DNA of 64,000 nt from an uncultured Gammaproteobacteria bacterium (GCA_963729605.1 CAVSNY010000006.1:288001-352000); one strand, 5' to 3'. Shown: positions 34,808 through 56,027, counted from the first letter of the stretch. The notes: a model not told the origin generated them from the sequence alone. Numbers and translations are program-made.

Positions 34808-35049
34808 TGATGGGCGATGTCCTCGCACGGGCGAATTACGCAAACGCCGCAATCGATCCGCCAACGCAAACGGCCACGCAACGTCCGACGACACGCGGAA
34901 AACGCAGCGTGTTTATCGTGTCGCCGTCGCAACCATGAATGCGGCCTGGGGTCTTCGATTTAGTAAAAGAATCGCCCTTCACCCGGCGGTACACGCTGCG
35001 CGTTTACACACCGCGACGGCTATCGTATAAATTTGATACTGGAGATGTG

Positions 35050-35475
35050 ATGTTCAATCCTTATGTAATCATACTCGCCCTCTTCACCCTCGCCGGACTG
35101 GCCATCGCCGTCTGGGGCTGGCGGCTGATCGCCCAGGGTCGTGCGACCCGGCGCTGGCCAACTGTCGAAGGCATCGTCGAAAACGAAACGCAAACCGATG
35201 ACAAGATGCCGATCCCCTACGTGAATTACTCGGTGAACGGCCACGCCTACCGCCAGGCATTAACCTTGCCGGACGAAATGCCGTCCGTGGGTGCGGTCAC
35301 GACCAGGCATCTCGAAAAATTTCCGGCGGGCGCCCGTATCCAAGTCCACTACGATCCCGCCCATCCCGAACACATCACCCTCGAACCCGGCCTGGGACGC
35401 GGCGATTGGCTGGTGTTCGCCGCCGGGATAGCCGCCATGCTGTTCGGGATACTCGCTTTATTATTTGGAAAATGA
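35050..35475 (+). CDS. DUF3592-like membrane protein
   Basis: N-terminal TM, WPTVEGIV, Y.VNG..Y, VHYDPAHP, C-terminal TM. Confidence 0.7.
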   Translation: MFNPYVIILALFTLAGLAIAVWGWRLIAQGRATRRWPTVEGIVENETQTDDKMPIPYVNYSVNGHAYRQALTLPDEMPSVGAVTTRHLEKFPAGARIQVHYDPAHPEHITLEPGLGRGDWLVFAAGIAAMLFGILALLFGK

Positions 35476-35530
35476 GCGCGGGAAATTTCGGGTCGTGGCT
35501 GCCTTTGTTCTACGGCACGCGGCCACTGAA

Positions 35531-35563
35531 CCGCCTTGACCAAGCGCCGTCACCCCCCCGGCG
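35531..35563 (+). repeat. Left island-boundary direct repeat
   Basis: CCGCCTTGACCAAGCGCCGTCACCCCCCCGGCG. Confidence 0.65.
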
Positions 35564-35640
35564 AATGCCCCGTAAAATAGCGACCCATAACAGCGGGGCG
35601 CATCGTCTACTGTCAAACTGTAGCGATCTATCCAAGACCA

Positions 35641-35790
35641 CTAGACGATTCGACGACCTTGAATGAGACGAATCAGTATCACCACGATGGCGATCACCAA
35701 AAGAATATGAATGAATCCCCCCATGGTGTATGAGCTGACCAAGCCAAGTAACCACAATACAATTAAGATGACCGCTATTGTCTCGAGCAT
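35641..35790 (-). CDS. lmo0937-family (DUF5670-like) small membrane protein, 49 aa (not in ORF track)
   Basis: MLETIAVILIVLWLLGLVSSYTMGGFIHILLVIAIVVILIRLIQGRRIV*; SD AGGAGG. Confidence 0.85.
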   Translation of the reverse strand: MLETIAVILIVLWLLGLVSSYTMGGFIHILLVIAIVVILIRLIQGRRIV

Positions 35791-36272
35791 TTTCTATCCT
35801 CCTATTAAACTGCCGTAAATCCAGGTCCGCGGAGAGGTTAGCGACGACGCATCTGACATAGCCGATATTGGCAAGATATTCTCCGCCATCCTCTATCTTG
35901 GAATAGCGGGTTCTCACGGCGACGCGGCACAAGAGGCAAGCACATCATCTCCATCTCACGGACGGTTTTTTCCTTCAATTGCATCGGCAAACCCCGCAAC
36001 AGGTCCGTCAACGCGTAAGCATGTGCTCCTCCGTCGCCAATATCCTGTCCGGCATGCGGCCTGTGGTAGGGTTTTGTTCGGCGAGGTATTCAAGGCCAAA
36101 GCTGATGGAGAGTTATGCGCATCAATCGGATCTGATACCTGAACAATAGAATGCTCATCAATTGAACGGAGCGGCGCTCAGCGAACCATCTCGCACTCGC
36201 CAGCACGGCAAAAGCTGGACCCACTACTGAAATTTATATCCGACAGTGGGCCGCATCCTAACTATCCACCCC

Positions 36273-36590
36273 TCATTTGAGCAGGATGTCGTCCTTGACG
36301 GATTTTACGCCCTTGACGCCTTGCGCAATCTCCGCCGCCTTGCGTTTGTCGCCCGCGTCGTGCACAAAGCCACTCAATTGAACCACGCCTTTGAAGGTTT
36401 CAACGTTGATCTCGGCCGACTTCAACGCAGCGTCATTGAAAATCGCCGCCTTCACTTTGGTGGTAATGACAGTATCGTCAATGAATTCGCCAGTCCCTGC
36501 GTGCTTTGCCGATGACGCACAACCCAGGGCGGAGGCTAACACAACGGTAAAAAACAATGCGGCAATGTGTTTCAGTGTTTTCACGGACAT
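36273..36590 (-). CDS. Single BON-domain (OsmY-like) lipoprotein
   Basis: Lipobox ALGC; IDDTVITTKVKAA, INVETFKGVVQLSGFV, VKGVKSVKD. Confidence 0.88.
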   Translation of the reverse strand: MSVKTLKHIAALFFTVVLASALGCASSAKHAGTGEFIDDTVITTKVKAAIFNDAALKSAEINVETFKGVVQLSGFVHDAGDKRKAAEIAQGVKGVKSVKDDILLK

Positions 36591-36861
36591 GCTCTCCTGA
36601 TGCTATTGAAATAATACTTCTAATTCTCGCTCGAATTTATAATGAGCCGCTCCTACTGACGACCACTCAACGCGGTGCGATGCTGCGGCCGGTGCTGAAA
36701 GCTGCCTGTCTGATTGTCAATGCGCATCTATAAAAAGCACCGTCGCCATACCGAACCCGCTGGCTGCCATCGCCATCAAGCTCACGCATCGACGCAATCA
36801 CACCGTACCTCGCCATTCTGAAACGGTGAGAGGCAGCTTAGGCTCAACACTGAGCGCGGTC

Positions 36862-36877
36862 GGTACGGTGACGCACA
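36862..36877 (-). promoter_or_regulatory. Putative Crp-family operator upstream of BON gene
   Basis: Minus strand TGTGCG-TCAC-CGTACC; TAAGCT -10 box exactly 21 nt downstream. Confidence 0.65.
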
Positions 36878-37132
36878 TAAGACAGACAATGGTCGTGTAG
36901 GGTAGATGATCCCCAGGCGGGCTGAGCGACCATTCAACTCTGCATGAATCGTTAAGGATGTCCGAACGCGGATTGACCAGGCGGTTCGGCGCGAAACAGA
37001 GCGACGGAGACCGGTTCGATCGACTCAGCGTACCCGCCGCCTCGGCCGAGGCCGAGACACCGCCATCGTAAATATAACGACTACGTTGATCAGACTAAAT
37101 TAGGCCTCTTCCAAAATTTTCCACAGGCTCGC

Positions 37133-38299
37133 TCAAGCATCCGCGGGTCGTTGCAGTACCAATCGGTACGCATCCATTCCGCGACTGAGGAAGGCGTACG
37201 CCGATCCCCAGAGATAGAGGCGAAAGCGACGGTAGAGCATCTCGCCCCAGCGGCTGATGATCTCCTCCCTCGCGGCATCCAGATTTTCGGCCCACGCCTT
37301 ACATGTGAGGTAATAGTTGTGGCGGTCGTTGTGAACCGCCAACACCTCCAACGGAGTTTTCGCCGCTTCGCTCAGGAACTCGTGTAGACAGAAGTAGCTA
37401 TGATCCCCAGGAAAGATATAACGGGAGACGAAGGTGGGTTTGGAATATTTCTCGCGGAAAGCGCTGGCGTCGAGATACACTCGCCCCCCGGGTTTCAATA
37501 GGTTTTGTAACTGCCGCAACACGGCCGGATAATCGGGAAGATGCTCCATCACGCCCAATATGACGATGGCGTCATAAGGTTCAGGCGAGGTGTATTCCAA
37601 AAAATCCTGGTTCAGCACGCGGCAGGGAAGCTGCAAGCACTGAATCAGATCCGTCAGGAACTCTGCCGAGTGGCGCGATATCGTCAGCGAGGTGACCGCT
37701 ATACCGCGCCGGCCGGCATGCTCGGTAAAGGCGCCCCATCCACCGCCGACATCCAACACGCGACATCCCGGCCGCAATCGGCATGCATCGATGGCAAAGT
37801 CCAGTTTGCGGCACTGCGCCGTTTCCAGGGTCTCGTCGTCGCGCTCGAACACCGCTTGCGAATAACAGCGGGTCGGATCCATGAATTTTAGATAAAACTC
37901 ATTGCTGAAATCATAGTGGCTGGCAATCGCCCGGCGGTCGGTTTGCACCCGTCCGACGAATAGCGGCGCGATCCGCCGCCACAGGGTGTGCAGCGGATGG
38001 CTATCGCTCAGCACGCCGCGGAGACTGACGAAACCCAGCATATCCCCGACGACGTCCAGGCTACCCGCCATGTAAGCTTCGCAGATTCTCAGTTCGTCCA
38101 GTCCGCTGAGAGCGGCCAAACCGTCGCGATCCTTGACCAAGACCTTGAGCGCGGGTTCTCCTTTGCCGAAGCGATAGCTGCGATCTCCCCATAAGCGAAT
38201 CTCGAAGGGAATCTTTATCTGATCGGCCAAGCGATCCTGAAACAGCTTGAATACCCTATCGTAACGCGTTACCAAGGCAGCTTCGGCCGATATATCCAT
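37133..38299 (-). CDS. Cyclopropane-fatty-acyl-phospholipid synthase family SAM methyltransferase
   Basis: IASHYDFSNEFY, YSQAVF, VLDVGGGWG, GVMEH, YIFPG; start at ATG 38299 after GGAGGAG. Confidence 0.8.
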   Translation of the reverse strand: MDISAEAALVTRYDRVFKLFQDRLADQIKIPFEIRLWGDRSYRFGKGEPALKVLVKDRDGLAALSGLDELRICEAYMAGSLDVVGDMLGFVSLRGVLSDSHPLHTLWRRIAPLFVGRVQTDRRAIASHYDFSNEFYLKFMDPTRCYSQAVFERDDETLETAQCRKLDFAIDACRLRPGCRVLDVGGGWGAFTEHAGRRGIAVTSLTISRHSAEFLTDLIQCLQLPCRVLNQDFLEYTSPEPYDAIVILGVMEHLPDYPAVLRQLQNLLKPGGRVYLDASAFREKYSKPTFVSRYIFPGDHSYFCLHEFLSEAAKTPLEVLAVHNDRHNYYLTCKAWAENLDAAREEIISRWGEMLYRRFRLYLWGSAYAFLSRGMDAYRLVLQRPADA

Positions 38300-38522
38300 T
38301 GATCGCTCCTCCCATGAAACCCTAAAGTCCCACACCTTTAACAAGCACAGATCAGGATACTATCAGTTGAGGGATAACAGGGCTGTCAGTTTACAACACG
38401 CTTTGATTTTTATTGTCACGGCATCCGCCGTCCTCTTTCAGATCAAGGCCGCGGTCGAATAAAAACCGATCTTGCATCTTAAGGATAGTAAAACGGGTCA
38501 AGCATTATGACCTGGCGGCGCC

Positions 38523-40685
38523 TCACTTGAATTCAGCAAGGGCTCGCTTCATACTGGCCCTAAGCTCATCCCAGACCTTATCCACGATTACTTTGCCTGG
38601 CATACCGGTTCTCAGTAGTTCGGTGTACTCCTCGGCAACCATCGGCCGGTGGAAGTAATACCCTTGCGCCTCTCCACAGCGTGCCGTTCGGAGAAAGTCG
38701 AGTTGCTCTTGAGTTTCCACACCCTCGGCGCTGACCCGCTTATGAAGACTATTGCCCATGCCAATCACGGCACTAACGATGATGGCATCGTCCGGATCGG
38801 TGGTGATGTCACGCACGAACGACTGGTCGATTTTCAGGGTATCGATCGGAAAGCGTTTCAGATAACTTAAACTGGAATAACCAGTACCGAAGTCGTCGAT
38901 AGCCAGCTGCACGCCCAAGGCTTTGAGCGCCTGCAACACGCTGGCGGTGGATTCACCATCCTGCATGAGCGCGCTCTCGGTCAGCTCGATCCCGAGATAA
39001 GCCGGCTCCAGGCGAGTTTCCTCCAGGGCGTCGCGAATACCCTCGAGAAAATGCTTGCTGCGGAATTCGACTGCCGAGATATTGATAGCCACCGAGGCTG
39101 GCTGCAGGCCGGCATCCAACCACGCGCGAATTTGCCGGCATGCCTCGCGCAATACCCAACGCCCGATCGGTACGATGAGGCCGCACTCTTCGGCGATGGA
39201 TACGAATTGCCCAGGATGGAGGAGGCCGCGCTTGGGATGCAGCCAGCGGATAAGTGCCTCGGCGCCAGCAATCTCGCCGGTCTCGAGATGGATTTTTGGT
39301 TGATAATGCAAGACGAATTCCTGTGCTGCCACGGCACGCCGCAGCCCGGTTTCGAGAGATTGCCGCTCCACGGCCCGGTCGTTCATGTCCTGCATAAAGA
39401 ACTGGAAATTGTCGCGGCCATTTTGCTTGGCGTAATACATCGCGGCGTCGGCATTCTTGATTAGGGTTTCCGCATCTTCGCCGTCACCGGGATAAATGCT
39501 GATGCCTATGCTGAGGGTGATATGGAGGTCGTGTCCCGCGATATGGTGACGGTCCGCCAGCGCCAAAATGATCTTTTCCGCGCGGTGCGCCGCATCTTCC
39601 GAACGCTCGATATCGGAAAGCAACACCACGAATTCATCCCCGCCCTGGCGGCTGACGGTATCCGACTCGCGGACGCATGTCGTCAAGCGTTCCGCCACCG
39701 ACTCCAGTAATTTATCGCCGATCAGATGCCCCAACGAGTCATTAATGTTTTTGAACATATCCAGGTCCATAAACAGTACTGCCAGTCGTTTTCGCCGCCG
39801 CCGGGCATGCGAGATCGCTTGGGTAAGCCGATCACTCAAAAGCACGCGGTTGGGCAACCCAGTAAGAAAATCATGTTGGGCCAAATGCGACATTTTGAGT
39901 ACCATTGTCCGCGCCTCGCTGACATCATGGAAAACCATCACGGCGCCGATCACGTGACCGCCCCGGTCGCGAATGGGGGCAGCGGAATCCTCGATGGGTA
40001 CTTCAACACCGTCGCGCCGGATCAGGCTACTGTTTGCACTGAGTCCGACGGCTTTATTTCGCAGCACGGCCAATTCGATAGGACTGCGGGCAGGTTCGCC
40101 GGTAATGCCGTCGATGATGTGGAGCACGTCGGCAAGCGGCCGACCGGTTGCCTCTTCCCGCGACCAACCGGTCATGCGTTCGGCGACCAGATTGAGGTAG
40201 GTGACATTGCCGAGAATGTCGGAGCTGATTACGGCATCACCTATGGAGTCGAGCGTGACTTGAGCACGCTCTCTCTCGATAAACAGCGCCTCTTCCGCTA
40301 CCTTGCGCGCTATCACGTTGCGCAGGGCGTGAGACAAGGAGTAGCCGTCAATATGACTTCTGAGGAGGAAATCCTGCGCGCCGTGTTGTATGGCTTGCTG
40401 TGCGGCGTCTTCCTGGTCCAAATCACTGAGAATCAGGATCGGGACCTGAGACTCGATCGCATATAATTTATCGAAGGTCTCGATACGATGACTATCGGAC
40501 AGGAATAGATTGAGTAAGACCGCCTTGATCCCTCCATCATTGATGCGTGCGATGCCGTCCGCGAGTGTTGTAACCCATTCGATCGTGAATGGACCATATC
40601 TTGCGTCAACGAGCGTATCCCGAATCGATTTGGCAGCAGTGGGATCACCTTCGATGAGTAGAACCCTTTCATTGATATTGCCCAT
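38523..40685 (-). CDS. Pseudo-REC/PAS/GGDEF/EAL c-di-GMP metabolism protein
   Basis: HDFLTGLPNR, RESD..GGDEF, YQPK, EALIRW, DDFGTGYSSL; N-terminal receiver-like and PAS domains. Confidence 0.92.
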   Translation of the reverse strand: MGNINERVLLIEGDPTAAKSIRDTLVDARYGPFTIEWVTTLADGIARINDGGIKAVLLNLFLSDSHRIETFDKLYAIESQVPILILSDLDQEDAAQQAIQHGAQDFLLRSHIDGYSLSHALRNVIARKVAEEALFIERERAQVTLDSIGDAVISSDILGNVTYLNLVAERMTGWSREEATGRPLADVLHIIDGITGEPARSPIELAVLRNKAVGLSANSSLIRRDGVEVPIEDSAAPIRDRGGHVIGAVMVFHDVSEARTMVLKMSHLAQHDFLTGLPNRVLLSDRLTQAISHARRRRKRLAVLFMDLDMFKNINDSLGHLIGDKLLESVAERLTTCVRESDTVSRQGGDEFVVLLSDIERSEDAAHRAEKIILALADRHHIAGHDLHITLSIGISIYPGDGEDAETLIKNADAAMYYAKQNGRDNFQFFMQDMNDRAVERQSLETGLRRAVAAQEFVLHYQPKIHLETGEIAGAEALIRWLHPKRGLLHPGQFVSIAEECGLIVPIGRWVLREACRQIRAWLDAGLQPASVAINISAVEFRSKHFLEGIRDALEETRLEPAYLGIELTESALMQDGESTASVLQALKALGVQLAIDDFGTGYSSLSYLKRFPIDTLKIDQSFVRDITTDPDDAIIVSAVIGMGNSLHKRVSAEGVETQEQLDFLRTARCGEAQGYYFHRPMVAEEYTELLRTGMPGKVIVDKVWDELRASMKRALAEFK

Positions 40686-40816
40686 GCTCGTAAACTCCCT
40701 TAAATGCTAAATGACGCAGAGTGCAGGGTGTCGAACCCACTGCTGTTCTTAAGCTGCTCATCCATCGGGCAAGTCAATCGCCATGATTACGATACAGCGA
40801 GAAGGTTGGCATGCTC

Positions 40817-40832
40817 TGTTCGCTAACGAACA
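40817..40832 (-). promoter_or_regulatory. Putative Crp-family operator upstream of GGDEF/EAL gene
   Basis: Minus strand TGTTCG-TTAG-CGAACA (perfect arms); TATCGT 22 nt downstream. Confidence 0.65.
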
Positions 40833-41041
40833 TAAGGTTGTAGCCGGTCTCAACCGGAGGACAGTGGTTCGCGGCGTCCATCACCATGAAAATACAACCC
40901 TGATAAGGACAGAGTCCGTTAATTTCTTGTCGTGGATTTATCAGACCAAAAAAAGGCCCTGCGAGGGGGCGCAAGGCTGAAGGGAGAATATGTCGTCTAT
41001 ACCGCTTTAACCATAGAACTATAAATCAGTAACCCGCCTAC

Positions 41042-41953
41042 TCACGGCCGACGTTCCACGGTTTCGGGTTTAGGTTCCTGGGGAGCACCGGTCATACTCT
41101 CTTTTAACGACTGCCTCCAGTTTCCCTGGGCTATCTCAGGACTATTCTTAAGCTGGTCCAGGGTAGAAGAAATCCGTAATTTATCTTTCTTTTCGCCCAT
41201 GGAAAGCGTATTGGTAGGGACAACAACCACCTTGTCATTGATGCCCGCAAATCCTCCAATTGAAAGAATGGCGTAAGGTACGCGGCCGCCTTCAAAATCC
41301 ACGGCCAAGTTTTTCACTTTGCCAACATCCTCATTCTGACCAGTAATGATTTTTCCTCCGATAATATCGCTGGCTTTGCTGATCTTTTTGGTCTTTGCTA
41401 ACTCAGCCGGCATGTGTACGCCTGCACGCTGATACATGCTGTTTAAGGCTTGCTGATTTACAGAATTGTTCCACTCAGAATTCGGAAGTGCCGGAGATTC
41501 CTTAATAATCTTCTCTGATAAATTAAGAATAAGAGATTGGCCGGTCGCGACACTCGCTCCGTCATTAAACAAACCGAAACTTTGCGGCGGCATGGCTAAT
41601 AATTTATCGCCCATCCCCAGAAAACCACCTGCGGACACTACTACGTAGCTGATTCGACCGCCGTTCAAATCGATGGCTAAATCCTTCACTTCTCCAATCT
41701 TATTTTTTTTGTTGTCAGTAACGCTTTTTCCAATTATGTCGGACGCTTCTACAAATTTGTGGCCCTGTTCCAGCTCTTGGGCACGACGCCCGTCTTCCAC
41801 GCCCTCTTGAACTTTTCCTTGTCGACTTGAATCGGAAGCGGCGATGACCTCACTCGTCCCCAGCGTCATTGTCGAAAAGAAAATGGCGCCCGTTAAAAAC
41901 ATACCCGCCCCTTTCATGGGGCGAACCGCCAACATTTGCTTACTCATATCCAA
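41042..41953 (-). CDS. Secreted tandem PRC-barrel domain protein
   Basis: Two ASDIIG...IGEVKDL/VGKVKNL...YxxxSxGGFxGxxDK repeats; signal-like N-terminus. Confidence 0.82.
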   Translation of the reverse strand: MDMSKQMLAVRPMKGAGMFLTGAIFFSTMTLGTSEVIAASDSSRQGKVQEGVEDGRRAQELEQGHKFVEASDIIGKSVTDNKKNKIGEVKDLAIDLNGGRISYVVVSAGGFLGMGDKLLAMPPQSFGLFNDGASVATGQSLILNLSEKIIKESPALPNSEWNNSVNQQALNSMYQRAGVHMPAELAKTKKISKASDIIGGKIITGQNEDVGKVKNLAVDFEGGRVPYAILSIGGFAGINDKVVVVPTNTLSMGEKKDKLRISSTLDQLKNSPEIAQGNWRQSLKESMTGAPQEPKPETVERRP

Positions 41954-42263
41954 CTCCTTAATTTAAATAAACATAGACACTCGGGATCTGCCTGCGCATT
42001 TTTAGCAAGTGCCCTATACCACAGAAGACGACATACATTAAAAATTTTTAGAGCGGCTTGGAATTTCATACTCAATATGAGCATGGCCAGGTATGCCATC
42101 TGAGTTATCCGGCAAACACCTTCAGCCACGTGGCGGATAAATCAGAGTTAAATGAGCCTTACTTTTTGTGATTTAAACATCTCGAGAGAGGACCCGGCTG
42201 CGCAGGCAGACTCTAAGATCAACCTTCACTGCCAACTTTATACACCCCTCCCACAATACGTTC

Positions 42264-42279
42264 TGTACGCTGACGCACA
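42264..42279 (-). promoter_or_regulatory. Putative Crp-family operator upstream of PRC-barrel gene
   Basis: Minus strand TGTGCG-TCAG-CGTACA; TATAAA/TAAAGT 21-23 nt downstream. Confidence 0.65.
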
Positions 42280-42345
42280 GAGGCGGCAGATTGACGCTGC
42301 CTCATGCCGACGCTTACTCATATAATCTTCTGGCTGATTATGTTC

Positions 42346-42361
42346 TGTGCGGTAGAGGACA
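42346..42361 (+). promoter_or_regulatory. Degenerate Crp-family operator upstream of first Crp gene
   Basis: TGTGCG-GTAG-AGGACA; TATACT 18 nt downstream. Confidence 0.45.
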
Positions 42362-42475
42362 TACCAGGAAGGAGGGGTATATACTGCGACGGCGTAAGTC
42401 CATCCCCATATCAACCCATGGTCCTTATTGTCGAGATCGCCTCATGGAACGAATCTGACAGCATGGAGGTGTCGT

Positions 42476-43192
42476 ATGGCTTTACAAAAACCAGAGCACA
42501 ACAATCTTCTCGCCGCCCTGCCCGAGCCCATACGCGGGCGGCTGTTTCCGCATTTGGAATTAGTAGAGATGCCGCTTGGCGAGGTCCTTTACGAATCCGG
42601 CTGCCAGTTGCACTACGTCTATTTCCCCACGACCTCCATCGTGTCTTTGCTTTACGTCATGGAAGATGGCGCATCGGCCGAGATTGCGGTGGTGGGAAAG
42701 GAAGGCATACTCGGCGTCGCCATTTTCATGGGCGGTGAAACCACCCCGAGCCGGGCCATCGTACAGAGCGAAGGCCACGGATTCCGGCTCAAGGCGCAGT
42801 TGCTCAAGGATGAATTCAATCGTGCCGGACCGATGATGCATCTATTGCTGCGTTACACCCAGGCGCTGATTACCCAGATGTCGCAGACGGCGGTCTGCAA
42901 TCGGCATCATTCCGTACATCAACAACTGTGTCGCTGGCTGCTGTTGAGCCTGGACCGACTGCCTTCGAGCAAACTGACCATGACTCAGGAATTGATCGCC
43001 AATATGCTCGGCGTGCGCCGCGAGGGAGTTACGGAAGCCGCCGGTAAATTGCAAAACGCCGGGTTGATACTCTACAGTCGCGGACAAATCACCATTCTCG
43101 ATCGGCAGGGACTGGAGGCGCAGGCCTGCGAGTGCTATCAAGTGGTCAAAAAGGAGTTTGATCGCCTGCTCCCCGACCTGATGGCCGAGTAA
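42476..43192 (+). CDS. Crp/Fnr-family transcriptional regulator 1
   Basis: NNLLAALP, VYFPT, AVCNRHH, LCRWLL, HTH TQELIANMLGVRREGVTEAAGKL, ACECY; start at ATG 42476 after GGAGGT. Confidence 0.92.
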   Translation: MALQKPEHNNLLAALPEPIRGRLFPHLELVEMPLGEVLYESGCQLHYVYFPTTSIVSLLYVMEDGASAEIAVVGKEGILGVAIFMGGETTPSRAIVQSEGHGFRLKAQLLKDEFNRAGPMMHLLLRYTQALITQMSQTAVCNRHHSVHQQLCRWLLLSLDRLPSSKLTMTQELIANMLGVRREGVTEAAGKLQNAGLILYSRGQITILDRQGLEAQACECYQVVKKEFDRLLPDLMAE

Positions 43193-43254
43193 TTCCTTAC
43201 CAAGCGTTGCACACTCTCACCCTGACCCACCCACCTCGCAGAAATTACGCGCTA

Positions 43255-43270
43255 TGTTCGACAGCGTACA
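43255..43270 (+). promoter_or_regulatory. Putative Crp-family operator upstream of second Crp gene
   Basis: TGTTCG-ACAG-CGTACA; CAAGCT 21 nt downstream. Confidence 0.6.
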
Positions 43271-43662
43271 GAATTTACCGCCGCTTCGGCTCAAGCTTAG
43301 CGAGGATTATGTTAGCGAACCAGGATGTATTCTAAAAAGTGCGCCGCCTTTTCGCGCGCGGGAGAGTCTCTCTTAATATAGGCTAATATAGGCGGCACCG
43401 CTGAGGCTGCTAATAGCAGCACGGGCGCATGGGGGGCCGATAAAGGACGCTCCGTTTTTAACAAAGCGTAAATTCAGATAAGACCGAATTACACGCTTCC
43501 CGATCAAATTGCTAGTCGGCCCCTCTTACCAAAATATTGCGCATCGGGTCGGAGACCCTTTTATCCGGCAAACTCCATCCGAAATCAGGATTACATCGCG
43601 TACATGGCCCGCACCGCCCGTTGGCTTTAGACCCGACGCTACAGGAGATTCCTACCCCCACT

Positions 43663-44357
43663 ATGCACGCTCCTCATACCAATCGTCTGCTTACCGCGCT
43701 GCCCCCCAGGATCGGAAACACTTCCTTGCGAGCTGCGAACAAGTCGAACTCGTGTTCGCCGACGTGCTCTGCGAACCGGGCGACCCTATCCGTCACGTTT
43801 ACTTCCCCACCGACAGCTATATTTCTTTGGTTAATCCGATCGATCGCGACACCCGCCTGGAGGTGGCACTGGTAGGTAATGAAGGCATGCACGGGATTGC
43901 CCTGGTACTGGGAGTGAATATTTCACCGCTGCACGCCTTGGTGCAGGGCGATGGTTCCGCGTTGCGCATCAGCGCCGCGCCGTTTCGCCGTCAACTCCAG
44001 CACAGCCCGGCGCTGCAACGGGGTCTGAACAGCTACATCTATGTGCAAATGAGCCAACTCGCGCAGACGGCGGCCTGCACCCGTTTTCATGTGGTCGAGG
44101 CGCGTCTCGCCCGCTGGCTGTTGATGACCCACGATCGAGCGCATTCGGACGAACTGCATATCACCCAAGAATTTCTCGCCTCCATGCTGGGCGTGCGTCG
44201 GGTCGGCATCACCAAGGCCGCCGGCTCACTGCAAAAACGCAAACTGATCAACTATAGCCGCGGCACCATCACGGTTCTCAACCGCGGCGGCCTGGAAGCC
44301 GCTTCTTGCGGGTGTTATCAGGCCGACAAGGCAACGTACACCCGCATCATGGGCTAG
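43663..44357 (+). pseudogene. Crp/Fnr-family regulator 2, split by a 1-nt deletion in a C6 run (real or assembly error)
   Basis: [14 protein letters not shown] in one frame, QDRKHFL...[21 protein letters not shown]...SCGCY in another; junction GCCCCCCAGG at 43701-43710. Confidence 0.75.
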
Positions 44358-44502
44358 CCCGCCCGCCATATCTTGATGGATGGATGAAGTCTGCATGCGC
44401 AGTGCGGGATGAAATACTAGGTTACCCGTCTTCACGACAGCCTCGGTGAGACATGCCTCAATCTCTTGCATCCACTCACCCAGAGGCGTTTCCACTATTA
44501 AG

Positions 44503-44531
44503 AAGGAAGCTCTGAATAATTCCGTCCTGGA
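44503..44531 (+). repeat. Solo left end of the 33137-33221 MITE
   Basis: AAGGAAGCTCTGAATAATTCCGTCCTGGA matches 33135-33163 at 28/29. Confidence 0.7.
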
Positions 44532-44689
44532 TTCACCGGATATAAGGAGAGCGAAAAATGTCATGTTTTCTTTCCTTCATTAAACATTCTGCGCCCGCTC
44601 ATACCGCATAACCAAATTAATTGGTTACCCACATCGGCGGAACGCCGGTTGCATCTCAAATACGGTTCCTTTCCAAAAACTTTTCCTAA

Positions 44690-44705
44690 TGTGCGATAGC
44701 GTACG
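44690..44705 (+). promoter_or_regulatory. Putative Crp-family operator upstream of ice-binding-like gene
   Basis: TGTGCG-ATAG-CGTACG, with a degenerate copy TATGCG-ATA-AGTACG at 44722-44736. Confidence 0.6.
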
Positions 44706-44922
44706 GAAGGCGGTGGACGAATATGCGATAAGTACGGACGGCATGATAACCCGTCTTATCGCACTGATCCGATTTTGCATTAACGCCGGTCAAAGTGATG
44801 CTCACCCAGCCGCGAAGCCCGGCAACAGCGAAAGTCAAACATTGAAAAAACACATCGGCATAAACACCGGCAAAGAGCCGGTCGATTTTTTAACGATTCT
44901 GCCAGAGTAAAGAGGGTTGCAA

Positions 44923-46755
44923 ATGAAAAATTTCGAAAGCATTACTAAACTACCGACGCAGTTCATGACATTACTGTTGATTATATTAATGGCGGCATGC
45001 GAAGGCGGGCGAGATCCCATCCTAGGCGGGGGCGGTAGTCTCGCCGCACTCGCGCCGACGGTGACTGCCGTCGCCCCGGTCAATAACGCCACCGGCGTAG
45101 CGATCAACACCCTCATCACCGCCGCTTTTAATGAACCGATGGCCCCCCTCACCGGCGCGGCAAGCTTCACGGTGACGTGCGCGGCGCCTTGCACCGATCC
45201 CACGGGCACGGTAGCCCTCGACGCCACAAACAGGATTGCCAGCTTTACTCTTGCAAGCACAACCACCCTCGCGCCCTCCACCCTCTATACGGTCACGGTC
45301 ACCGGGGCTCGCAGTCTCGCCACAGGCCTGGCATTGGCGAGCCCCTATGTATGGCGCTTTACGACGGGCGTCACGTCGGACACCACCCGGCCCACAGTGA
45401 CGTCTACCGCCCCTGCCGACGGTGCTACCGACGTTGCGATCAACAGGAGGGTCACCGCGACGTTCAGTGAAGACATGAACCCGGCAACGATCACCGGAAC
45501 CAGCTTTGCGGTGACGGGGCCCGGCACAACCGGGGTAGCAGGCACGGTGAGCTACACTGTCGGTGCCAGAACCGCGATCTTTACGCCGACAGCCAATCTG
45601 CCAGACGGCGTCTTGTTTACTGCCACGCTTAACACGGGAAACGCGGATCTGGCCGGCAATACGCTGGCGGTTAACAAGGTATGGACCTTTACAACCGGTA
45701 CGGCCGCAGATACCACCGCACCCACGGCGATTCTGGTGAATCCCGCCGATCTTGCCACGGCCGTGGCAGTCAACAGTGCCGTCAACGTGACGTTCAGCGA
45801 GGCAATGGACCCGTTAACGATCAGCACGGCCAGCTTTATGGTACAAGCCAGCGGCCCCCCGCTGGGTCCAACATTAGCAGGGTCGGTCAGCCATGATCCA
45901 CTGACCCATATTGCAACCTTTACGCCCTCAAGCGATCTCGCAGTCAATACCGCGTATACAGCCACGGTTACCACCGAAGCCACCGACTTGGCGGGAAATG
46001 CGCTTGCGGTTAACAAAATATGGAGTTTTACAACTGCAGCAGCAGCGCCGGTGATACAAACCGCGGTAAACCTGCAATCGGTCGCACCGTTCGGCGCGGC
46101 GGGTGGCGCGGGGATCACCAGCTGCGGGAATACCGTGATTACGGGTGATGTCTCGACCACCTCCGCATCGACTTTAGTCACTGGATTAACCGATGGGAAC
46201 GGACTCGGCAACTCCTATACGATCGCGGGTTGTCCGGGAATAGTAGACGGAAAGATCTATACCGCCCCACCACCGCCCGGAGACGCAGATTCACTGGCGA
46301 TCGCAACTCAGGCCCAAGATGATGCGCAAACCGCGTTTGATGCCACCTCGCCCGCGTCAATGCCGGGGGGAATAAGTCAGGCCGCCGAACTCGGCGCGCT
46401 AACCCTCGCCCCCGGTATCTATACGTCGGGAACCTCGTTTGAGATAACCACCGTGGATCTCACCCTCGACGCCCAGGGCGACGCGAATGCCGTCTGGATA
46501 TTCCAGTCACCGAGCACGCTCACCGTGGGAGTCAATGTCAACGTTATTCTGACCAACGGCGCCAAGGCCAAGAATGTTTTTTGGCATGTCGGCAGTGCAG
46601 CCACTATCAACGCCGGCGCGGCGATGCAAGGAACCATCCTAGCCTTTTCAGGCGTCTCGATGGGTACCGGCGCGACGCTGGAGGGCAGGGCCATATCCCT
46701 GGTCGGCGGCCCGGTTACCTTGCTGAGCAACATTATCAACGTGCCTGCCCCGTAA
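44923..46755 (+). CDS. Lipoprotein with three Ig-like (Big_5/SbsA-type) repeats and a C-terminal DUF3494 ice-binding-like domain
   Basis: Lipobox LMAAC; 3x PTV/PTA...ATxVAxN...FxExM...WxFTT; C-terminal LAPGIY, LDAQGDANAVWIFQ, NGAKAKNVFWHVGSAAT, GTILA. Confidence 0.85.
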   Translation: MKNFESITKLPTQFMTLLLIILMAACEGGRDPILGGGGSLAALAPTVTAVAPVNNATGVAINTLITAAFNEPMAPLTGAASFTVTCAAPCTDPTGTVALDATNRIASFTLASTTTLAPSTLYTVTVTGARSLATGLALASPYVWRFTTGVTSDTTRPTVTSTAPADGATDVAINRRVTATFSEDMNPATITGTSFAVTGPGTTGVAGTVSYTVGARTAIFTPTANLPDGVLFTATLNTGNADLAGNTLAVNKVWTFTTGTAADTTAPTAILVNPADLATAVAVNSAVNVTFSEAMDPLTISTASFMVQASGPPLGPTLAGSVSHDPLTHIATFTPSSDLAVNTAYTATVTTEATDLAGNALAVNKIWSFTTAAAAPVIQTAVNLQSVAPFGAAGGAGITSCGNTVITGDVSTTSASTLVTGLTDGNGLGNSYTIAGCPGIVDGKIYTAPPPPGDADSLAIATQAQDDAQTAFDATSPASMPGGISQAAELGALTLAPGIYTSGTSFEITTVDLTLDAQGDANAVWIFQSPSTLTVGVNVNVILTNGAKAKNVFWHVGSAATINAGAAMQGTILAFSGVSMGTGATLEGRAISLVGGPVTLLSNIINVPAP

Positions 46756-46898
46756 GGCTCGAGGTCAAAATAAAGGCCGGCAGAGTCATTCTTCCTGCCG
46801 ACCTTTATTGCTTCATCAGGACAAAGTCAACTCACAGTCATGCTTCACCGTGACGTGATGACTTTAATTAAAGACGGTAAATCCCCCGGGAGAAAAAT

Positions 46899-48395
46899 AT
46901 GAAACTAGCAAGAGCCAAATCAGCAAGAACCTCAGGGACGCTGGGGTTGATGGCACTCGCTGCGATCACCAGCTCATTCGCAATGGCGGACGATTCAGGC
47001 TGGTACGGCGGGATCAATCTTGGCCACTCGAGCGCCAAATTCGACGACGGCAATATCACCCGCGGCCTACAGGAGCGCGGTTTTACCACGACCTCGTTCG
47101 CCGGGGACGACGACGAACTCGGCTATAAGCTTTTTGGCGGGTATCAGTTCAACAAGAATTTTGCGCTTGAAGGCGGTTATTTCGATCTGGGCGAGTTTGA
47201 TTTTACGGCGACCACGGTGCCGGCCGGGACACTGAACGGCAATATCAAGCTCAAAGGCGTGAATCTCGATGCCGTCGGCATATTACCCCTCGCCGAACGA
47301 TTTTCTGCATTTGGCCGGGTCGGATTGAACTACGCTGAAGCCGAAGACTCCTTCACCGGCACCGGATTAGTCAATGTGCTCAACCCCAACTCCAGCAAGC
47401 GTGATACGAATTACAAGTTTGGCTTGGGGCTTCAGTACGATTTCACGGAATCTCTCGCAATGCGCGCCGAGGCGGAACGCTACCGGATCAACGACGCCGT
47501 CGGCGACAAAGGCGACGTCGATCTGGTCTCGGTCGGCCTGGTCTACCGGTTCGGCAAAAATAAGGCCGCTCCCGTAGCCGCCACGAAAACGGCGGCGACC
47601 CCTCCCTCCGCGCCCATGGTTGCGGCGGCACCGGTGCTGGTTGTCGTGCCGGTCCCGGCGCAGACCGAACAGTATTGCAGCATTCTCGACATCCAGTTCG
47701 AAATTAACCAGGACGAAATTCAGCGCGAAGAGCAGGAGAAGCTCGCGGTGGTGGGCACCTTCTTGAACAAATATCCCGACACCACGGCCATGATCGAGGG
47801 TCACAGCGATAATGTAGGAATGCCTGAGCAAAATATAAAACTGTCCCAACAGCGGGCGAAGAGCGTGGTGGACTATCTGGTGAATAACTTCCAGATCGCG
47901 CCGTCCCGCTTGTCGGCGGTGGGCTACGGAGATACCCGCCCCATCGCGGACAACGGTACCGAGGAAGGGAAACGGCGGAACCGGCGTATCAATGCCGTCA
48001 TCGCGTGTGCGACGGACATCGAGGGGCTGACGGTGATCCCCGCCAGAACCACCATGGCCATGCTAATCGAGTTCGACCAGAACAAGGCCGATATTCGGCC
48101 GCAGTACCGCGATGAAATCGGCAAGGTGGCCAATTTTATGAAAGCGAACCCCTCCATCACCGCAACCGTGGAAGGCCATACCGGCAATCTAAGTGGGACC
48201 CCCGAGCTGGCGATGGAAATCTCGCAACGCCGCGCTCAGAAGGTGGTGGATTACCTGGTGGATAACTTTGGTATCGCACGTTCGCGACTTTCCGCGGAAG
48301 GCTTCGGCGAAACTCGACGTTTCGCCTACAACACCAGCTTAGAAGGACAGCAGGAAAACCGCCGGGTCAACATCATCTTCAACTACGCCAAGTAG
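46899..48395 (+). CDS. OmpA-family protein: N-terminal beta-barrel plus two OmpA-like C-terminal domains
   Basis: SGWYGG...GYQFNKNFALEGGY...GLVYRFG; two domains with EGHSD/EGHTG, SQxRAxxV, RLSAxG(Y/F)G, NRR(I/V)N. Confidence 0.88.
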   Translation: MKLARAKSARTSGTLGLMALAAITSSFAMADDSGWYGGINLGHSSAKFDDGNITRGLQERGFTTTSFAGDDDELGYKLFGGYQFNKNFALEGGYFDLGEFDFTATTVPAGTLNGNIKLKGVNLDAVGILPLAERFSAFGRVGLNYAEAEDSFTGTGLVNVLNPNSSKRDTNYKFGLGLQYDFTESLAMRAEAERYRINDAVGDKGDVDLVSVGLVYRFGKNKAAPVAATKTAATPPSAPMVAAAPVLVVVPVPAQTEQYCSILDIQFEINQDEIQREEQEKLAVVGTFLNKYPDTTAMIEGHSDNVGMPEQNIKLSQQRAKSVVDYLVNNFQIAPSRLSAVGYGDTRPIADNGTEEGKRRNRRINAVIACATDIEGLTVIPARTTMAMLIEFDQNKADIRPQYRDEIGKVANFMKANPSITATVEGHTGNLSGTPELAMEISQRRAQKVVDYLVDNFGIARSRLSAEGFGETRRFAYNTSLEGQQENRRVNIIFNYAK

Positions 48396-48563
48396 CGGTA
48401 GAACCCGGGCTGCACGGCCCGGCACCGCATTCCAAACCTGGTCAACGCCATCCCCTCGGAGATGGCGTCGACGCATCCGGCATCACTATTTTTCGCATAA
48501 AACAATCCTCAGAAAAATTTTGGGGGTCGTGACTACCGTGATCGGCGCGGTATGCCCGGCAAC

Positions 48564-48594
48564 CCGCCTTGATCACACGCCGTCACCCCCGGCG
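48564..48594 (+). repeat. Right island-boundary direct repeat
   Basis: CCGCCTTGATCACACGCCGTCACCCCCGGCG; 28 identities to 35531-35563. Confidence 0.65.
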
Positions 48595-48666
48595 GCTGCG
48601 CCCGCCCCGCCGCTCTGCTAAAGTAGCGTCCCTCTGACAGTCGGCGCCGGGCGCCGCAACCGCAAG

Positions 48667-49515
48667 GTGATACGCGTGTCCAAACTCGAGCAATTGGAAA
48701 AAAAACTGCTGCACTACGTGGGCAAGGCCATCGCCGATTACAATCTGATCCAAAGCGGCGACAAGGTGATGGTGTGCCTGTCGGGCGGCAAGGATTCCTT
48801 CACCCTGTTGCACATCCTGCATCTGTTGCGGCGGCGCAGCCACAATAAGTTCGAGGTGTTTTCCTATACGCTGGACCAGAAGCAACCGGGCTGGAACGAC
48901 GGCGCGTTGCGGGCCTGGCTGGAGGAACGCGGCTATCCCTATGCGATCGCCGCCAAGGACACCTATTCGATCGTCATCGACAAGGTGCCCGAGGGCAAGA
49001 CCTATTGCTCGCTGTGTTCGCGCCTTCGGCGCGGCACCATTTACGAATACGCCGCGCGCCACGGCCACGACAAGATCGCCCTCGGCCATCACCGCGACGA
49101 CCTCATCCACAGCCTGTTGATGTCGATCCTCTACAACGGCGAGATCCGCTCGATGCCGCCCAAGCTGCTCACCGACGACAAACGCCACATCGTGATCCGG
49201 CCGCTGGTGTATTGCCAGGAGGCCGACATCGCCGAATACGCCGCGCTGCAAAATTTCCCGATCATCCCCTGCAATCTGTGCGGCTCGCAGGAAAACCTGG
49301 CGCGCCAGCGCGTCAAGCAATGGGTCAATGATCTCGCCCGAGAGAATCCGAAAATCCCCAGCAATACGCTGCACGCCTTGCAAGCGCTGCAACCCAGTCA
49401 GCTCATGGACAAAGAGTGGTGGGACTTTAAAAATCTGGAGCGGCAGCGGATCACGCCGGAACAAATCACCGACGAGAGCGACGCCGCGCCGGAGCCCAAA
49501 ACCTCCAGCCTGTAA
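48667..49515 (+). CDS. ttcA: tRNA 2-thiocytidine(32) synthetase
   Basis: SGGKDS PP-loop, [24 protein letters not shown]; start could be GTG 48676. Confidence 0.93.
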
Positions 49516-54405: not shown

Positions 54406-55059
54406 GTGACATTAGCCATTTTCGATTTGGACAATACCCTGCTGGGCGGGGACAGCGACTACCTGTGGGGCAACTATCTGGTGGAAAAAGGCCTGGTGGA
54501 CGGCGCCTATTATGAACGCGAGAACCAGCGTTTTTACGACGAATACCGGTCGGGCCGCCTCGACATCCATGAGTTTCTCGATTTCTCGCTCCGCCCGCTG
54601 GCGGAGACTCCCATCGCGCAATTGCGGGCCCTCCGCGAGCAATTCATGCGGGAGAAGATCGAGCCCATCATCCTCCCCGCCGCCCGCACATTATTGGACC
54701 ATCACCGGCAACGCGGCCACCTGTTGCTGATCATCACCGCCACCAACCAGTTCGTCACCGCCCCCATCGCCGCCGCGCTGGGGGTGGAACACCTGCTGGC
54801 CACCGATCCCGAGATGATCGACGGCCGCTACACCGGCCGGGTCGCGGGCACCCCCACCTTCCGCGAAGGCAAGGTGCAGCGGCTCACGGAATGGCTGCAA
54901 CGACACGGACACCACCTGGCGGACGCCTGGTTCTACAGCGACTCGCACAATGACCTGCCTTTGCTCGAACTGGTGACCAACCCGGTGGCGGTGGACCCGG
55001 ACGAGACGCTCCGCGTCCATGCCGAGGCCAAGGGCTGGCCCGTCATCAGTCTGCGATGA
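54406..55059 (+). CDS. HAD-IB family phosphatase (SerB/HisN-like)
   Basis: FDLDNTLL, ITATN, GK, YSDSHNDLP; GTG start after GGAG. Confidence 0.85.
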   Translation: MTLAIFDLDNTLLGGDSDYLWGNYLVEKGLVDGAYYERENQRFYDEYRSGRLDIHEFLDFSLRPLAETPIAQLRALREQFMREKIEPIILPAARTLLDHHRQRGHLLLIITATNQFVTAPIAAALGVEHLLATDPEMIDGRYTGRVAGTPTFREGKVQRLTEWLQRHGHHLADAWFYSDSHNDLPLLELVTNPVAVDPDETLRVHAEAKGWPVISLR

Positions 55060-56027
55060 TCCGGCCACAGCCACTGTTCCTCGGCCTCTTGTTGCTGAGC
55101 GGCGTCAGCCTCGCGGCGGCGCTGCTGATCGGCAGCGTCACCCTGAGTCCAAATACGGCGTGGGCGGTGTTGCAAGGCGGCGGCGATGACCTGCAACGGG
55201 CGGTGATCCTGGAATTGCGCTTGCCGCGCGCCCTCAGCGCCTTCGCGGTGGGCGGCCTGCTGGCCCTGGCCGGCGCCTTGATGCAGGTATTGCTGCGCAA
55301 TCCGCTGGCCGATCCCTACATCCTCGGCGTGTCGGGCGGCGCGGCGGTGTTCACGCTCACCGCCATGCTGCTCGGCGCCAGCGGCGCGCTGCTCAGCGGG
55401 GCCGCCTTCGGCGGCGCCTTGTTCACCATGCTGCTGGTGTTCGCCCTGGCGCGGGGGCAAGGCGGTTGGACGCCGGTGCGGCTGCTGCTCACCGGGGTGG
55501 TGATCGCCTCCGGCTGGGCGGCGCTGATCGGTTTCATACTCGCGGTGAGCCCGGACACCACCCTGCGCGGCATGCTGTTCTGGTTGATGGGCGACCTCGA
55601 ATTCTCGACGCGGCCTTACAGCGCCTGGGCGGTGCTGACCGCGGGACTGGCGGTGGCGCTGGTGCTGGCCCGCGACCTCAACGTGCTGGCGCGCGGCGAC
55701 TTGCAGGCCCGCGCGCTCGGCGTGCCGGTCGGCGTGCTGTTTCCTCTGCTGTACGTCGGCGCCTCGCTGCTCACCGCGGCGGCCGTCACCTTGGCCGGCA
55801 CGGTCGGCTTCATCGGCTTGATCGTGCCCCATCTGCTGCGCTTGGTGGCGGGCGGCGATCATCGCATTCTGCTCCCCGGCGCGGTGCTGCTGGGCGGCAG
55901 CCTGCTCACCGCCGCCGACACCCTGGCGCGCACGGTGATCGCCCCGCAGCAACTGCCGGTGGGCGTGATCACCGCCCTGCTCGGCGTGCCGGTGTTTCTC
56001 TATCTGCTCAACCGGAGGGGCGGATGA
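55056..56027 (+). CDS. FecCD/BtuC-family ABC transporter permease
   Basis: LRLPR, RNPLADPYILGVSGGA, FWLMG, GFIGLIVPH, LPVGVITALLG. Confidence 0.9.
   Translation: MIRPQPLFLGLLLLSGVSLAAALLIGSVTLSPNTAWAVLQGGGDDLQRAVILELRLPRALSAFAVGGLLALAGALMQVLLRNPLADPYILGVSGGAAVFTLTAMLLGASGALLSGAAFGGALFTMLLVFALARGQGGWTPVRLLLTGVVIASGWAALIGFILAVSPDTTLRGMLFWLMGDLEFSTRPYSAWAVLTAGLAVALVLARDLNVLARGDLQARALGVPVGVLFPLLYVGASLLTAAAVTLAGTVGFIGLIVPHLLRLVAGGDHRILLPGAVLLGGSLLTAADTLARTVIAPQQLPVGVITALLGVPVFLYLLNRRGG

Follow-up and report, generated by a model that had tools for sequence, protein, structure and literature searches.

The class II promoters of Escherichia coli CRP carry the box TGTGA-N6-TCACA, and those of cyanobacterial NtcA have GTA-N8-TAC at -41.5 together with a TAN3T -10 box but lack a -35 element. 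Here, we describe a comparable arrangement in 64,000 nucleotides (nt) of DNA from an uncultured gammaproteobacterium (GCA_963729605.1, CAVSNY010000006.1:288001-352000; this whole stretch is called the window, and positions are counted from its first letter). Six copies of a 16-bp palindromic core precede genes for a BON-domain protein, a GGDEF/EAL protein, a PRC-barrel protein, an ice-binding-like protein, and two Crp/Fnr-type regulators, Crp1 and Crp2. These sites are probably operators of a widespread, conserved, and apparently uncharacterized Crp/Fnr subfamily typified by Crp1, which would act by class II activation at most of its targets. That the protein bound there is Crp1 and that it acts as an activator, as well as the kind of signal it may sense, are inferences from sequence.

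The system shares with E. coli CRP the two-domain Crp/Fnr build, a 16-bp core within a palindrome of 20 to 22 bp, the TGT-N10-ACA frame, a site centre about 41.5 nt from the inferred transcription start, and, as judged from sequence, an Arg and a Glu opening the recognition helix. Unlike in E. coli CRP, any of G, A, and T is accepted at position 4 of the Crp1 motif, and carbon catabolism has no part in the gene set. The likeness to NtcA promoters extends to the same overall architecture, and half-sites with A at position 4 even read GTA-N8-TAC; here, however, G is preferred at that position, and the motif is found in proteobacteria, before stress and envelope genes. SdrP of Thermus thermophilus is a Crp-family activator of stationary-phase and stress genes from class II-type sites; it differs in phylum and motif.

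Several known regulators were considered and rejected. The sequence-only reading of the window, which had proposed the six sites, held that their motif is neither a CRP nor an FNR box, and a matrix built from other species (described below) bears this out: core positions 5 and 6 are C (0.88) and G (0.93), in agreement with neither the CRP operator TGTGA-N6-TCACA nor the FNR/Anr operator TTGAT-N4-ATCAA. Crp1 also lacks the N-terminal Cys cluster of FNR/Anr: residues 1 to 140 contain no Cys that is invariant in an alignment of 15 members (A1). The NtcA model TIGR03697, the sole NCBIfam model matched, gave 21.9 bits for Crp1 and 30.3 bits for Crp2, compared with a cutoff of 244.95. The lxa low-oxygen regulon of Burkholderia cenocepacia resembles our locus in being a clustered stress locus with a repeated intergenic Crp/Fnr-type box and Crp-family genes, but its Anr/Fnr-like motif, TGA-N6-TCA in the passages at hand, differs from the Crp1 palindrome and excludes it as the same system (PMC3721108). 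The motif of RedB, as given in a passage of PMC9603854, is nonpalindromic and AT-rich. Excerpts of two Crp/Fnr family surveys do not mention our motif (PMC3590769 and PMC12531629), literature searches for the motif strings returned nothing, and a looser search returned unrelated papers only. Thus, the earlier statement that the operator is not recognizable as a characterized one agrees with our having found no published description.

A direct check of the window found all six 16-mers in place and reading letter for letter as they had been aligned. That they share one consensus was borne out in part. The pattern TGTKCG-N4-CGWAC fits five of them without mismatch, and site 2, a perfect palindrome, counts on both strands, bringing the strand matches to six; these five sites are all intergenic and confined to 36863-44704. 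The mean in shuffled windows was 0.17 matches, and none of 100 dinucleotide shuffles reached six. This enrichment disappeared when one mismatch (11 matches, 6.0 expected) or two mismatches (76 matches, 75.3 expected) were allowed, and since site 4, in front of crp1, deviates at two positions, the pattern alone cannot justify it. The 22-nt matrix, trained on other species only, scores the window sites at 21.0 to 26.3 bits, compared with 9.9 bits for the next best position in the window and 19.4 bits for the top score in 100 shuffled windows. Site 4 reaches 21.0 bits, having one perfect half-site and both outer letters, T and A, of the extended palindrome, and because this score stems from an independent matrix we take the site to be real. 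All strong sites fall within 7.9 kb, and there is none in the remaining 56 kb of the window.

For comparison, we used the best 80 of at least 609 loci with a Crp1 homolog, one genome per species and up to 10 kb on each side, amounting to 1.27 Mb; most come from beta- and gammaproteobacteria, with the proviso that taxon labels of assembled genomes may be wrong. Genes were called with our own rough caller, by which about 79% of this DNA is coding. The exact pattern of the sequence-only reading matched 98 times in the 80 loci, compared with 3.4 times (standard deviation, 2.1; maximum, 10) in 20 shuffles, and altering its spacer to N3, N5, or N6 left only 2 to 4 matches. Intergenic DNA holds 96 of 107 strand matches, a total that includes 6 in the window, and just 5 are not followed by a gene start. 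The symmetrized matrix was iterated on the loci alone, with the window excluded from training, and comprises 342 sites with the consensus T-c-TGT(G/A/T)CG-c(T/C)(A/G)g-CG(C/T/A)ACA-g-A; its inner CG is nearly invariant, and G is preferred at position 4 (56%). Matches of at least 11 bits occur at 1.13 per kb of intergenic DNA and 0.036 per kb of coding DNA. At 13 bits or more, 361 sites were found in 76 of the 80 loci, compared with 8 to 19 in ten shuffles, and the motif is thus conserved in homologous clusters, a check that had been proposed for it. When palindromic 4-mer dyads were counted blind in intergenic and in coding DNA, those most enriched in intergenic DNA were registers of this palindrome (TGTG-N8-CACA, 29 versus 1.8; GTGC-N6-GCAC, 57 versus 12.3; CGCTAGCG, 31 versus 2.6). 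After the sites had been masked, no second palindrome remained in these loci and, hence, no separate Crp2 operator was found. Repetitive extragenic palindromes are species-specific and scattered between genes regardless of promoters, which does not fit a motif that occurs in 76 of 80 loci of different species, before gene starts and at a fixed -10 spacing.

The operator had also been described as oriented toward its gene, down to an asymmetric spacer. The spacer claim did not survive, as NYAS is the palindromic c-Y-R-g read one way. What remains of the orientation is a 2:1 tendency and not a strict rule. Read strictly (K in one half, W in the other) against our own gene calls, 18 unambiguous sites had the same and 21 the opposite orientation (14 versus 20 without the window sites). 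At half-site position 4, 174 half-sites had G 80 times, A 55, T 31, and C 8 times, and the letters of the two halves combine nearly as independence predicts. Among the 138 sites oriented by their -10 hexamer, G occupied the distal half in 89 and the proximal half in 63, and the mixed sites favored a promoter-distal G by 51 to 25 (p=0.004).

Spacing to the -10-like hexamer was fixed. A TAnnnT hexamer starts 21 nt past the 16-bp core on 116 of the 720 sides of 360 sites and 22 nt past it on 32, compared with counts of 8, 11, and 8 at gaps of 19, 20, and 23 nt. At the 178 sites with a single target, the hexamer at gap 21 was on the gene side in 49 cases and on the mirror side in 7. A gap of 21 nt, with transcription starting 7 nt after the hexamer, places the site centre 41.5 nt upstream of the start. 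The fixed distance between operator and -10 box and the centre near -41.5 are those of class II promoters, the geometry that had been predicted, and four of the six window sites fit it; they are the four for which a -10-like hexamer at 21 to 23 nt had been noted, namely those of the BON (21 nt), GGDEF/EAL (22 nt), PRC (21 nt), and crp2 (21 nt) genes. Operator 3, in the divergent PRC/crp1 region, has no -10-like hexamer on its crp1 side. A conserved -35 element is lacking, and the middle letters of the hexamers are rich in G+C (TACCCT, TAGCCT); promoters of this kind fit activator dependence, as far as sequence can tell. A C immediately upstream of the -10 hexamer is typical of RpoS-dependent promoters; at the present sites it is not enriched (C, 0.28 at gap 20).

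These features suggest a mode of action. A dimer would most likely bind the 20-bp palindrome T-n-TGT(G/A/T)CG-cYRg-CG(C/T/A)ACA-n-A, whose centre at most targets would lie about 41.5 nt upstream of the transcription start, and the bound dimer would substitute for the missing -35 element, activating a promoter with a weak TAnnnT -10 box. The promoters of crp1 itself and of the paralog crp2 would likewise be under the control of the regulator. In the window, the predicted module would comprise the BON gene, the receiver-PAS-GGDEF-EAL gene, perhaps with the cyclopropane-fatty-acid (CFA)-synthase-like gene, the PRC-barrel gene, crp1, crp2, and the ice-binding-like gene, perhaps with the OmpA gene.

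The crp1 promoter itself departs from the common spacing. A promoter scan of the window gave AGGACA-18-TATACT, with the hexamer only 18 nt from the operator, and at crp1 homologs this distance is likewise short, about 18 to 21 nt. With this short distance, autoregulation may be positive or negative. The same promoter raises the alternative that the sites are repressor operators, with a Crp-type protein silencing the module until its release from the DNA brings about induction: the proximal half-site at crp1 overlaps a -35-like hexamer located 18 nt from TATACT, and the -10 distance is shorter at crp1 homologs than at other targets. Yet, at those other targets no -35 element is conserved, and a repressor needs no exact class II spacing, which is nevertheless seen on the 116 and 32 sides counted above. 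Hence, we consider repression an improbable role for these operators.

Crp1 belongs to the Crp/Fnr superfamily, matching PF00027 with 31.8 bits (cutoff, 27.5) and PF13545 with 56.9 bits; in Crp2, of which the 216 amino acids downstream of a frameshift were scanned, only PF13545 was matched. Relatives of Crp1 are 75 to 90% identical across beta- and gammaproteobacteria, and a database search returned at least 8000 candidates, the best 120 of which are 78 to 100% identical. None of the solved structures is close, the nearest ones matching Crp1 only at E=6e-6 or weaker. All members of alignment A1 share the recognition helix GVRREGVTEAAG-L, and C141, H144, H145, C152, C218, and C220 are likewise invariant in 15 homologs (window positions 42896-42931 and 43127-43135); Crp2 keeps C141, H145, and the C-x-C. 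Through this Cys/His set, which may bind a metal or an iron-sulfur center or sense redox state, the C-terminal tail may be connected with the hinge helix, a layout similar to that of Bacillus subtilis Fnr.

Gene context ties this protein to the motif. A site lies within 400 nt upstream of crp1 in 60 of the 80 homologous loci, in 29 of them 95 to 135 nt before the start, a range that includes the 122.5 nt between the centre of operator 4 and the crp1 ATG in the window. Site density is 0.98 per kb within 1 kb of crp1 and drops to 0.15 per kb at 8 to 10 kb. A crp2-like gene is present in 35 of the 80 loci, as a rule immediately after crp1, and 27 such genes have a site of their own. The placement of the operator before both crp1 and crp2, proposed from the window, therefore recurs among the homologous loci.

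A more specific link comes from five Burkholderiaceae records (comparison loci L059, L063, L078, and L079, and a Ralstonia megaplasmid, L084), in which the recognition helix reads RRSG and not RREG. When sites are scored without positions 4 and 13, the 22 half-sites of these records have C at position 4 in 8 cases and G in 3, compared with C in 41 and G in 398 of 716 half-sites elsewhere (Fisher p=3e-5 for C and 1e-4 for G). This helix-to-base covariation fits Crp1-type proteins as the likely readers of the motif. A parallel is offered by the paralogs CRPMt and Cmr of Mycobacterium tuberculosis, for which the passages available describe overlapping 16-bp motifs that share positions 2, 3, 14, and 15 and are discriminated by positions 4 and 13, with the Glu of the recognition helix among the residues contacting critical bases of the core motif (PMC5758884). 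Both systems have two Crp paralogs, and the pairing of Glu with position 4 described there matches the covariation seen here; sequences and organisms differ, however, and in our system discrimination is deduced only from the covariation.

This precedent for paralog discrimination, as described in the same passages (PMC5758884), also bears on another possibility, namely, that Crp2 or a Crp1-Crp2 heterodimer reads the operator or that the paralogs compete for it, with positions 4 and 13 as discriminator. The crp1-crp2 pair recurs, with 27 of the crp2-like genes in 35 loci having a site; masking left no second motif that Crp2 might read instead; the helices of Crp1 and Crp2 differ at the Glu position (RREG versus RRVG); and sites with G in one half only are in slight excess (202 versus 178.2 expected). 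Speaking against this possibility, the 45 loci without a crp2-like gene in the fetched DNA still hold 0.26 sites per kb, although the absence of crp2 is weak evidence because the gene could sit beyond the 20 kb fetched. Position-4 usage is equal in loci with and without crp2 (chi-square p=0.77), and crp2 of the window is frameshifted. A part for Crp2 in reading the operator is thus, in our view, unlikely. Joint activation of the module by both Crp proteins, as proposed from the window, is likewise conjectural and not supported as it stood.

Still less credible, and indeed highly improbable, is that some unrelated regulator, with its gene at another place, binds the palindrome or that the latter is a nonregulatory extragenic repeat. 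One could argue for this from the selection of the loci through Crp1 and from the indirect assignment of binding to Crp1. Against it stand the TGT-N10-ACA frame and the length of 20 to 22 bp, which are the format of Crp-family sites, the persistence of the motif between species whose flanking DNA differs, the intergenic position of most matches ahead of gene starts, the fixed -10 spacing, and the helix-to-base covariation.

A number of observations weigh against assigning the six sites to Crp1 as class II activator. The spacing of 18 nt between the crp1 site and its -10 hexamer also fits autorepression, and the ice-binding gene has no hexamer fitting nAnnnT at 21 to 23 nt from operator 6. If transcription starts 41.5 nt from the site centre, four of the six window leaders are long, about 184 to 359 nt, and two of these contain terminator-like hairpins. 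The covariation comprises 11 sites from five related Burkholderiaceae records and possibly goes back to a single evolutionary event, and the equal usage of position 4 with and without crp2 makes the roles of the two paralogs inseparable. The comparison loci were picked for holding a Crp1 homolog, which in itself accounts for part of the co-occurrence; a single set of loci served both for training the matrix and for counting sites, the window being independent; and target assignment depends on a crude gene caller.

The predicted target set is made up of 320 genes starting within 450 nt of a site. Crp-type genes account for 84 of them (54 crp1-like, 27 crp2-like, and 3 other), and the other 236 were scanned with Pfam. 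CsbD proteins were the most frequent (15 targets), followed by GGDEF proteins with or without EAL (10, three of them with the receiver-PAS-GGDEF-EAL build seen in the window), BON proteins (9, in other loci), DUF3309 and/or M48 peptidase (8), PAS histidine kinases with related PAS sensor proteins (8), DUF3096 (7), YeaQ-type proteins (Transgly_assoc; 5), PRC barrels (4, in other loci), and fatty-acid desaturases (4). Three targets each encode DUF4398, fatty-acid hydroxylase, DUF1328, and DUF883 proteins, and two each Ice_binding (L002, L042), OmpA (L003, L047), KaiC, PLD-type enzymes, ferritin-like, SPFH, and phasin proteins. Single cases included a CFA synthase (CMAS, L052), cold-shock protein, hibernation factor, Usp, entericidin, squalene-hopene cyclase, phosphoketolase, transaldolase, and class I aldolase. 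The proposal that the window holds an envelope, cold, and adhesion module is too narrow, with Ice_binding at 2 of the 236 non-Crp targets. Each target class of the window was found again as a target in other species. Across the family, the targets have the look of general-stress and envelope genes, a set which as a whole we take to be akin to general-stress regulons. A literature search combining CsbD, BON domain, Crp, and regulon found nothing. In an Allochromatium transcriptome, which offers a circumstantial parallel, PRC-barrel, M48 peptidase, CsbD, and phosphoketolase genes rise together, and the passages available name no regulator (PMC11267869).

The motif also occurs on mobile DNA. On a 70-kb Methylomagnum plasmid, the four sites of at least 17 bits precede BON, PRC-barrel, copper-binding four-helix, and hypothetical genes of the deposited annotation. 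On the complete 103.5-kb pKLC102 (NC_019202.1; L083, with L087 to L089), six sites of at least 14 bits all lie within 6.3 kb (92,907-99,161) around a Crp/Fnr gene whose product is 75% identical to Crp1, with desaturase, methyltransferase, and GH94 genes nearby; elsewhere on this element there are only two weak matches, of 10.5 and 11.9 bits. Together with these neighbors, the Crp/Fnr gene and its six operators make up a compact cargo module on a conjugative element of Pseudomonas aeruginosa. The description of the regulon as self-contained holds within the 64-kb window and on pKLC102. In the comparison loci, sites continue at 0.15 per kb as far as 8 to 10 kb from crp1, and further sites may exist elsewhere in the genome of the window.

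It is tempting to speculate, though we would put this forward as a possibility more doubtful than not, that in beta- and gammaproteobacteria a portable regulon for general stress and envelope remodeling has the Crp1 subfamily as its master activator. Such a regulon would be a functional counterpart of the RpoS or EcfG regulons, but governed by a Crp-type protein and moving in cassette form with plasmids and with integrative elements like pKLC102; the signal would be sensed through an unusual site made of four invariant Cys and two His residues (C141, H144, H145, C152, C218, and C220) or through cyclic di-GMP (c-di-GMP). The targets in this reading would include CsbD, BON/OsmY, YeaQ-type, DUF883, Dps-like, hibernation factor, lipid-modifying, and c-di-GMP enzyme genes and KaiC.

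As to c-di-GMP, passages on BerA (Bcam1349) of B. cenocepacia describe a c-di-GMP-responsive Crp/Fnr regulator and give no DNA motif (PMC3584217, PMC5552954). A 55%-identical Crp1 homolog from Mycetohabitans (L086, NZ_CP062180.1, 206126-222815), with an unchanged recognition helix, is encoded directly upstream of exopolysaccharide synthesis genes and between genes for sigma-54 activators, a setting which by gene context alone resembles the berA-berB-bep region as outlined in those passages. The c-di-GMP theme is likewise shared, GGDEF/EAL genes being frequent targets here. We regard this context as a lead to c-di-GMP as a candidate ligand and nothing more.

Apart from the wider reading, a regulator that is found at 75 to 90% identity in thousands of sequenced proteobacteria, and is annotated merely as "Crp/Fnr family transcriptional regulator," gains an operator with a position-specific matrix, a promoter architecture, and a predicted target set that includes small proteins of unknown function (DUF3309, DUF3096, DUF1328, and CsbD). 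If confirmed, these features would name a stress-response circuit for genes of a kind usually credited to sigma factors, and one that travels with its regulator on mobile DNA. The pairing of Glu-to-Ser with G-to-C provides a ready handle on binding specificity.

Table 1. Operators and genes of the Crp1 module in the window (bits, score in the 22-nt matrix)
Feature	Position	Strand	Description
Operator 1, before BON gene	36862..36877	-	TGTGCGTCACCGTACC toward gene; 22.2 bits; TAAGCT 21 nt downstream (36835-36840)
Operator 2, before GGDEF/EAL gene	40817..40832	-	Perfect palindrome TGTTCG/CGAACA; 25.7 bits; TATCGT 22 nt downstream (40789-40794)
Operator 3, divergent PRC/crp1 region, serves PRC side	42264..42279	-	26.3 bits; TATAAA 21 nt off (42237-42242)
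Operator 4, before crp1	42346..42361	+	TGTGCGGTAGAGGACA; 21.0 bits; proximal half AGGACA doubles as -35-like hexamer
Operator 5, before crp2	43255..43270	+	24.8 bits; CAAGCT 21 nt downstream (43292-43297)
Operator 6, before ice-binding-like gene	44690..44705	+	22.4 bits
BON-domain (OsmY-like) gene	36273..36590	-	105 amino acids; Pfam BON E=5.8e-19
Cyclopropane-fatty-acid-synthase-like methyltransferase gene	37133..38299	-	Pfam CMAS E=4e-54; without own operator
Response regulator-PAS-GGDEF-EAL gene	38523..40685	-	Pfam
Gene with two PRC-barrel domains	41042..41953	-	Pfam PRC, two stretches; likely start ATG at 41917
crp1, Crp/Fnr-family regulator	42476..43192	+	238 amino acids; Pfam cNMP_binding and HTH_Crp_2; recognition helix GVRREGVTEAAGKLQ
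crp2, paralog of crp1	43663..44357	+	41% identical to crp1; frame shifts in C run 43701-43706
Gene with three Big_5 domains and Ice_binding (DUF3494)	44923..46755	+	Pfam
OmpA-type barrel gene with two OmpA C-terminal domains	46899..48395	+	Pfam; without own operator

The identities of the window genes (Table 1) were confirmed by Pfam. A matrix scan found no site of at least 7 bits at 38300-38522, upstream of the CFA-synthase-like gene, which may be read through from the GGDEF/EAL gene; similarly, the OmpA gene may be cotranscribed with the ice-binding gene. The crp2 start at ATG 43663 is followed by the N-terminal motif of the family (...NRLLTALPP) and then by a one-base frame shift relative to ten homologs, while the long frame, open from TTG at 43509, lacks that motif; the frame break is either a homopolymer assembly error or a real frameshift. 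Terminator-like hairpins with T runs are located at 43546-43566, in the leader between operator 5 and crp2, and at 44866-44890, in the one that leads from operator 6 to the ice-binding gene; a role in attenuation is possible, and so is one in ending small transcripts. No convincing small open reading frames were found in the four long leaders, and an Rfam scan of 35500-49000 for riboswitches and small RNAs gave only a chance microRNA match below threshold. No tRNA or integrase gene adjoins the stretch from about 35 to 48 kb. Its G+C content is 47 to 62%, compared with 59 to 66% in both flanks, and this low value over 35000-48000 fits horizontally acquired DNA. Farther downstream, positions 55000-55999 are compositionally odd, with a G+C content of 0.71 and an AT skew of -0.33.

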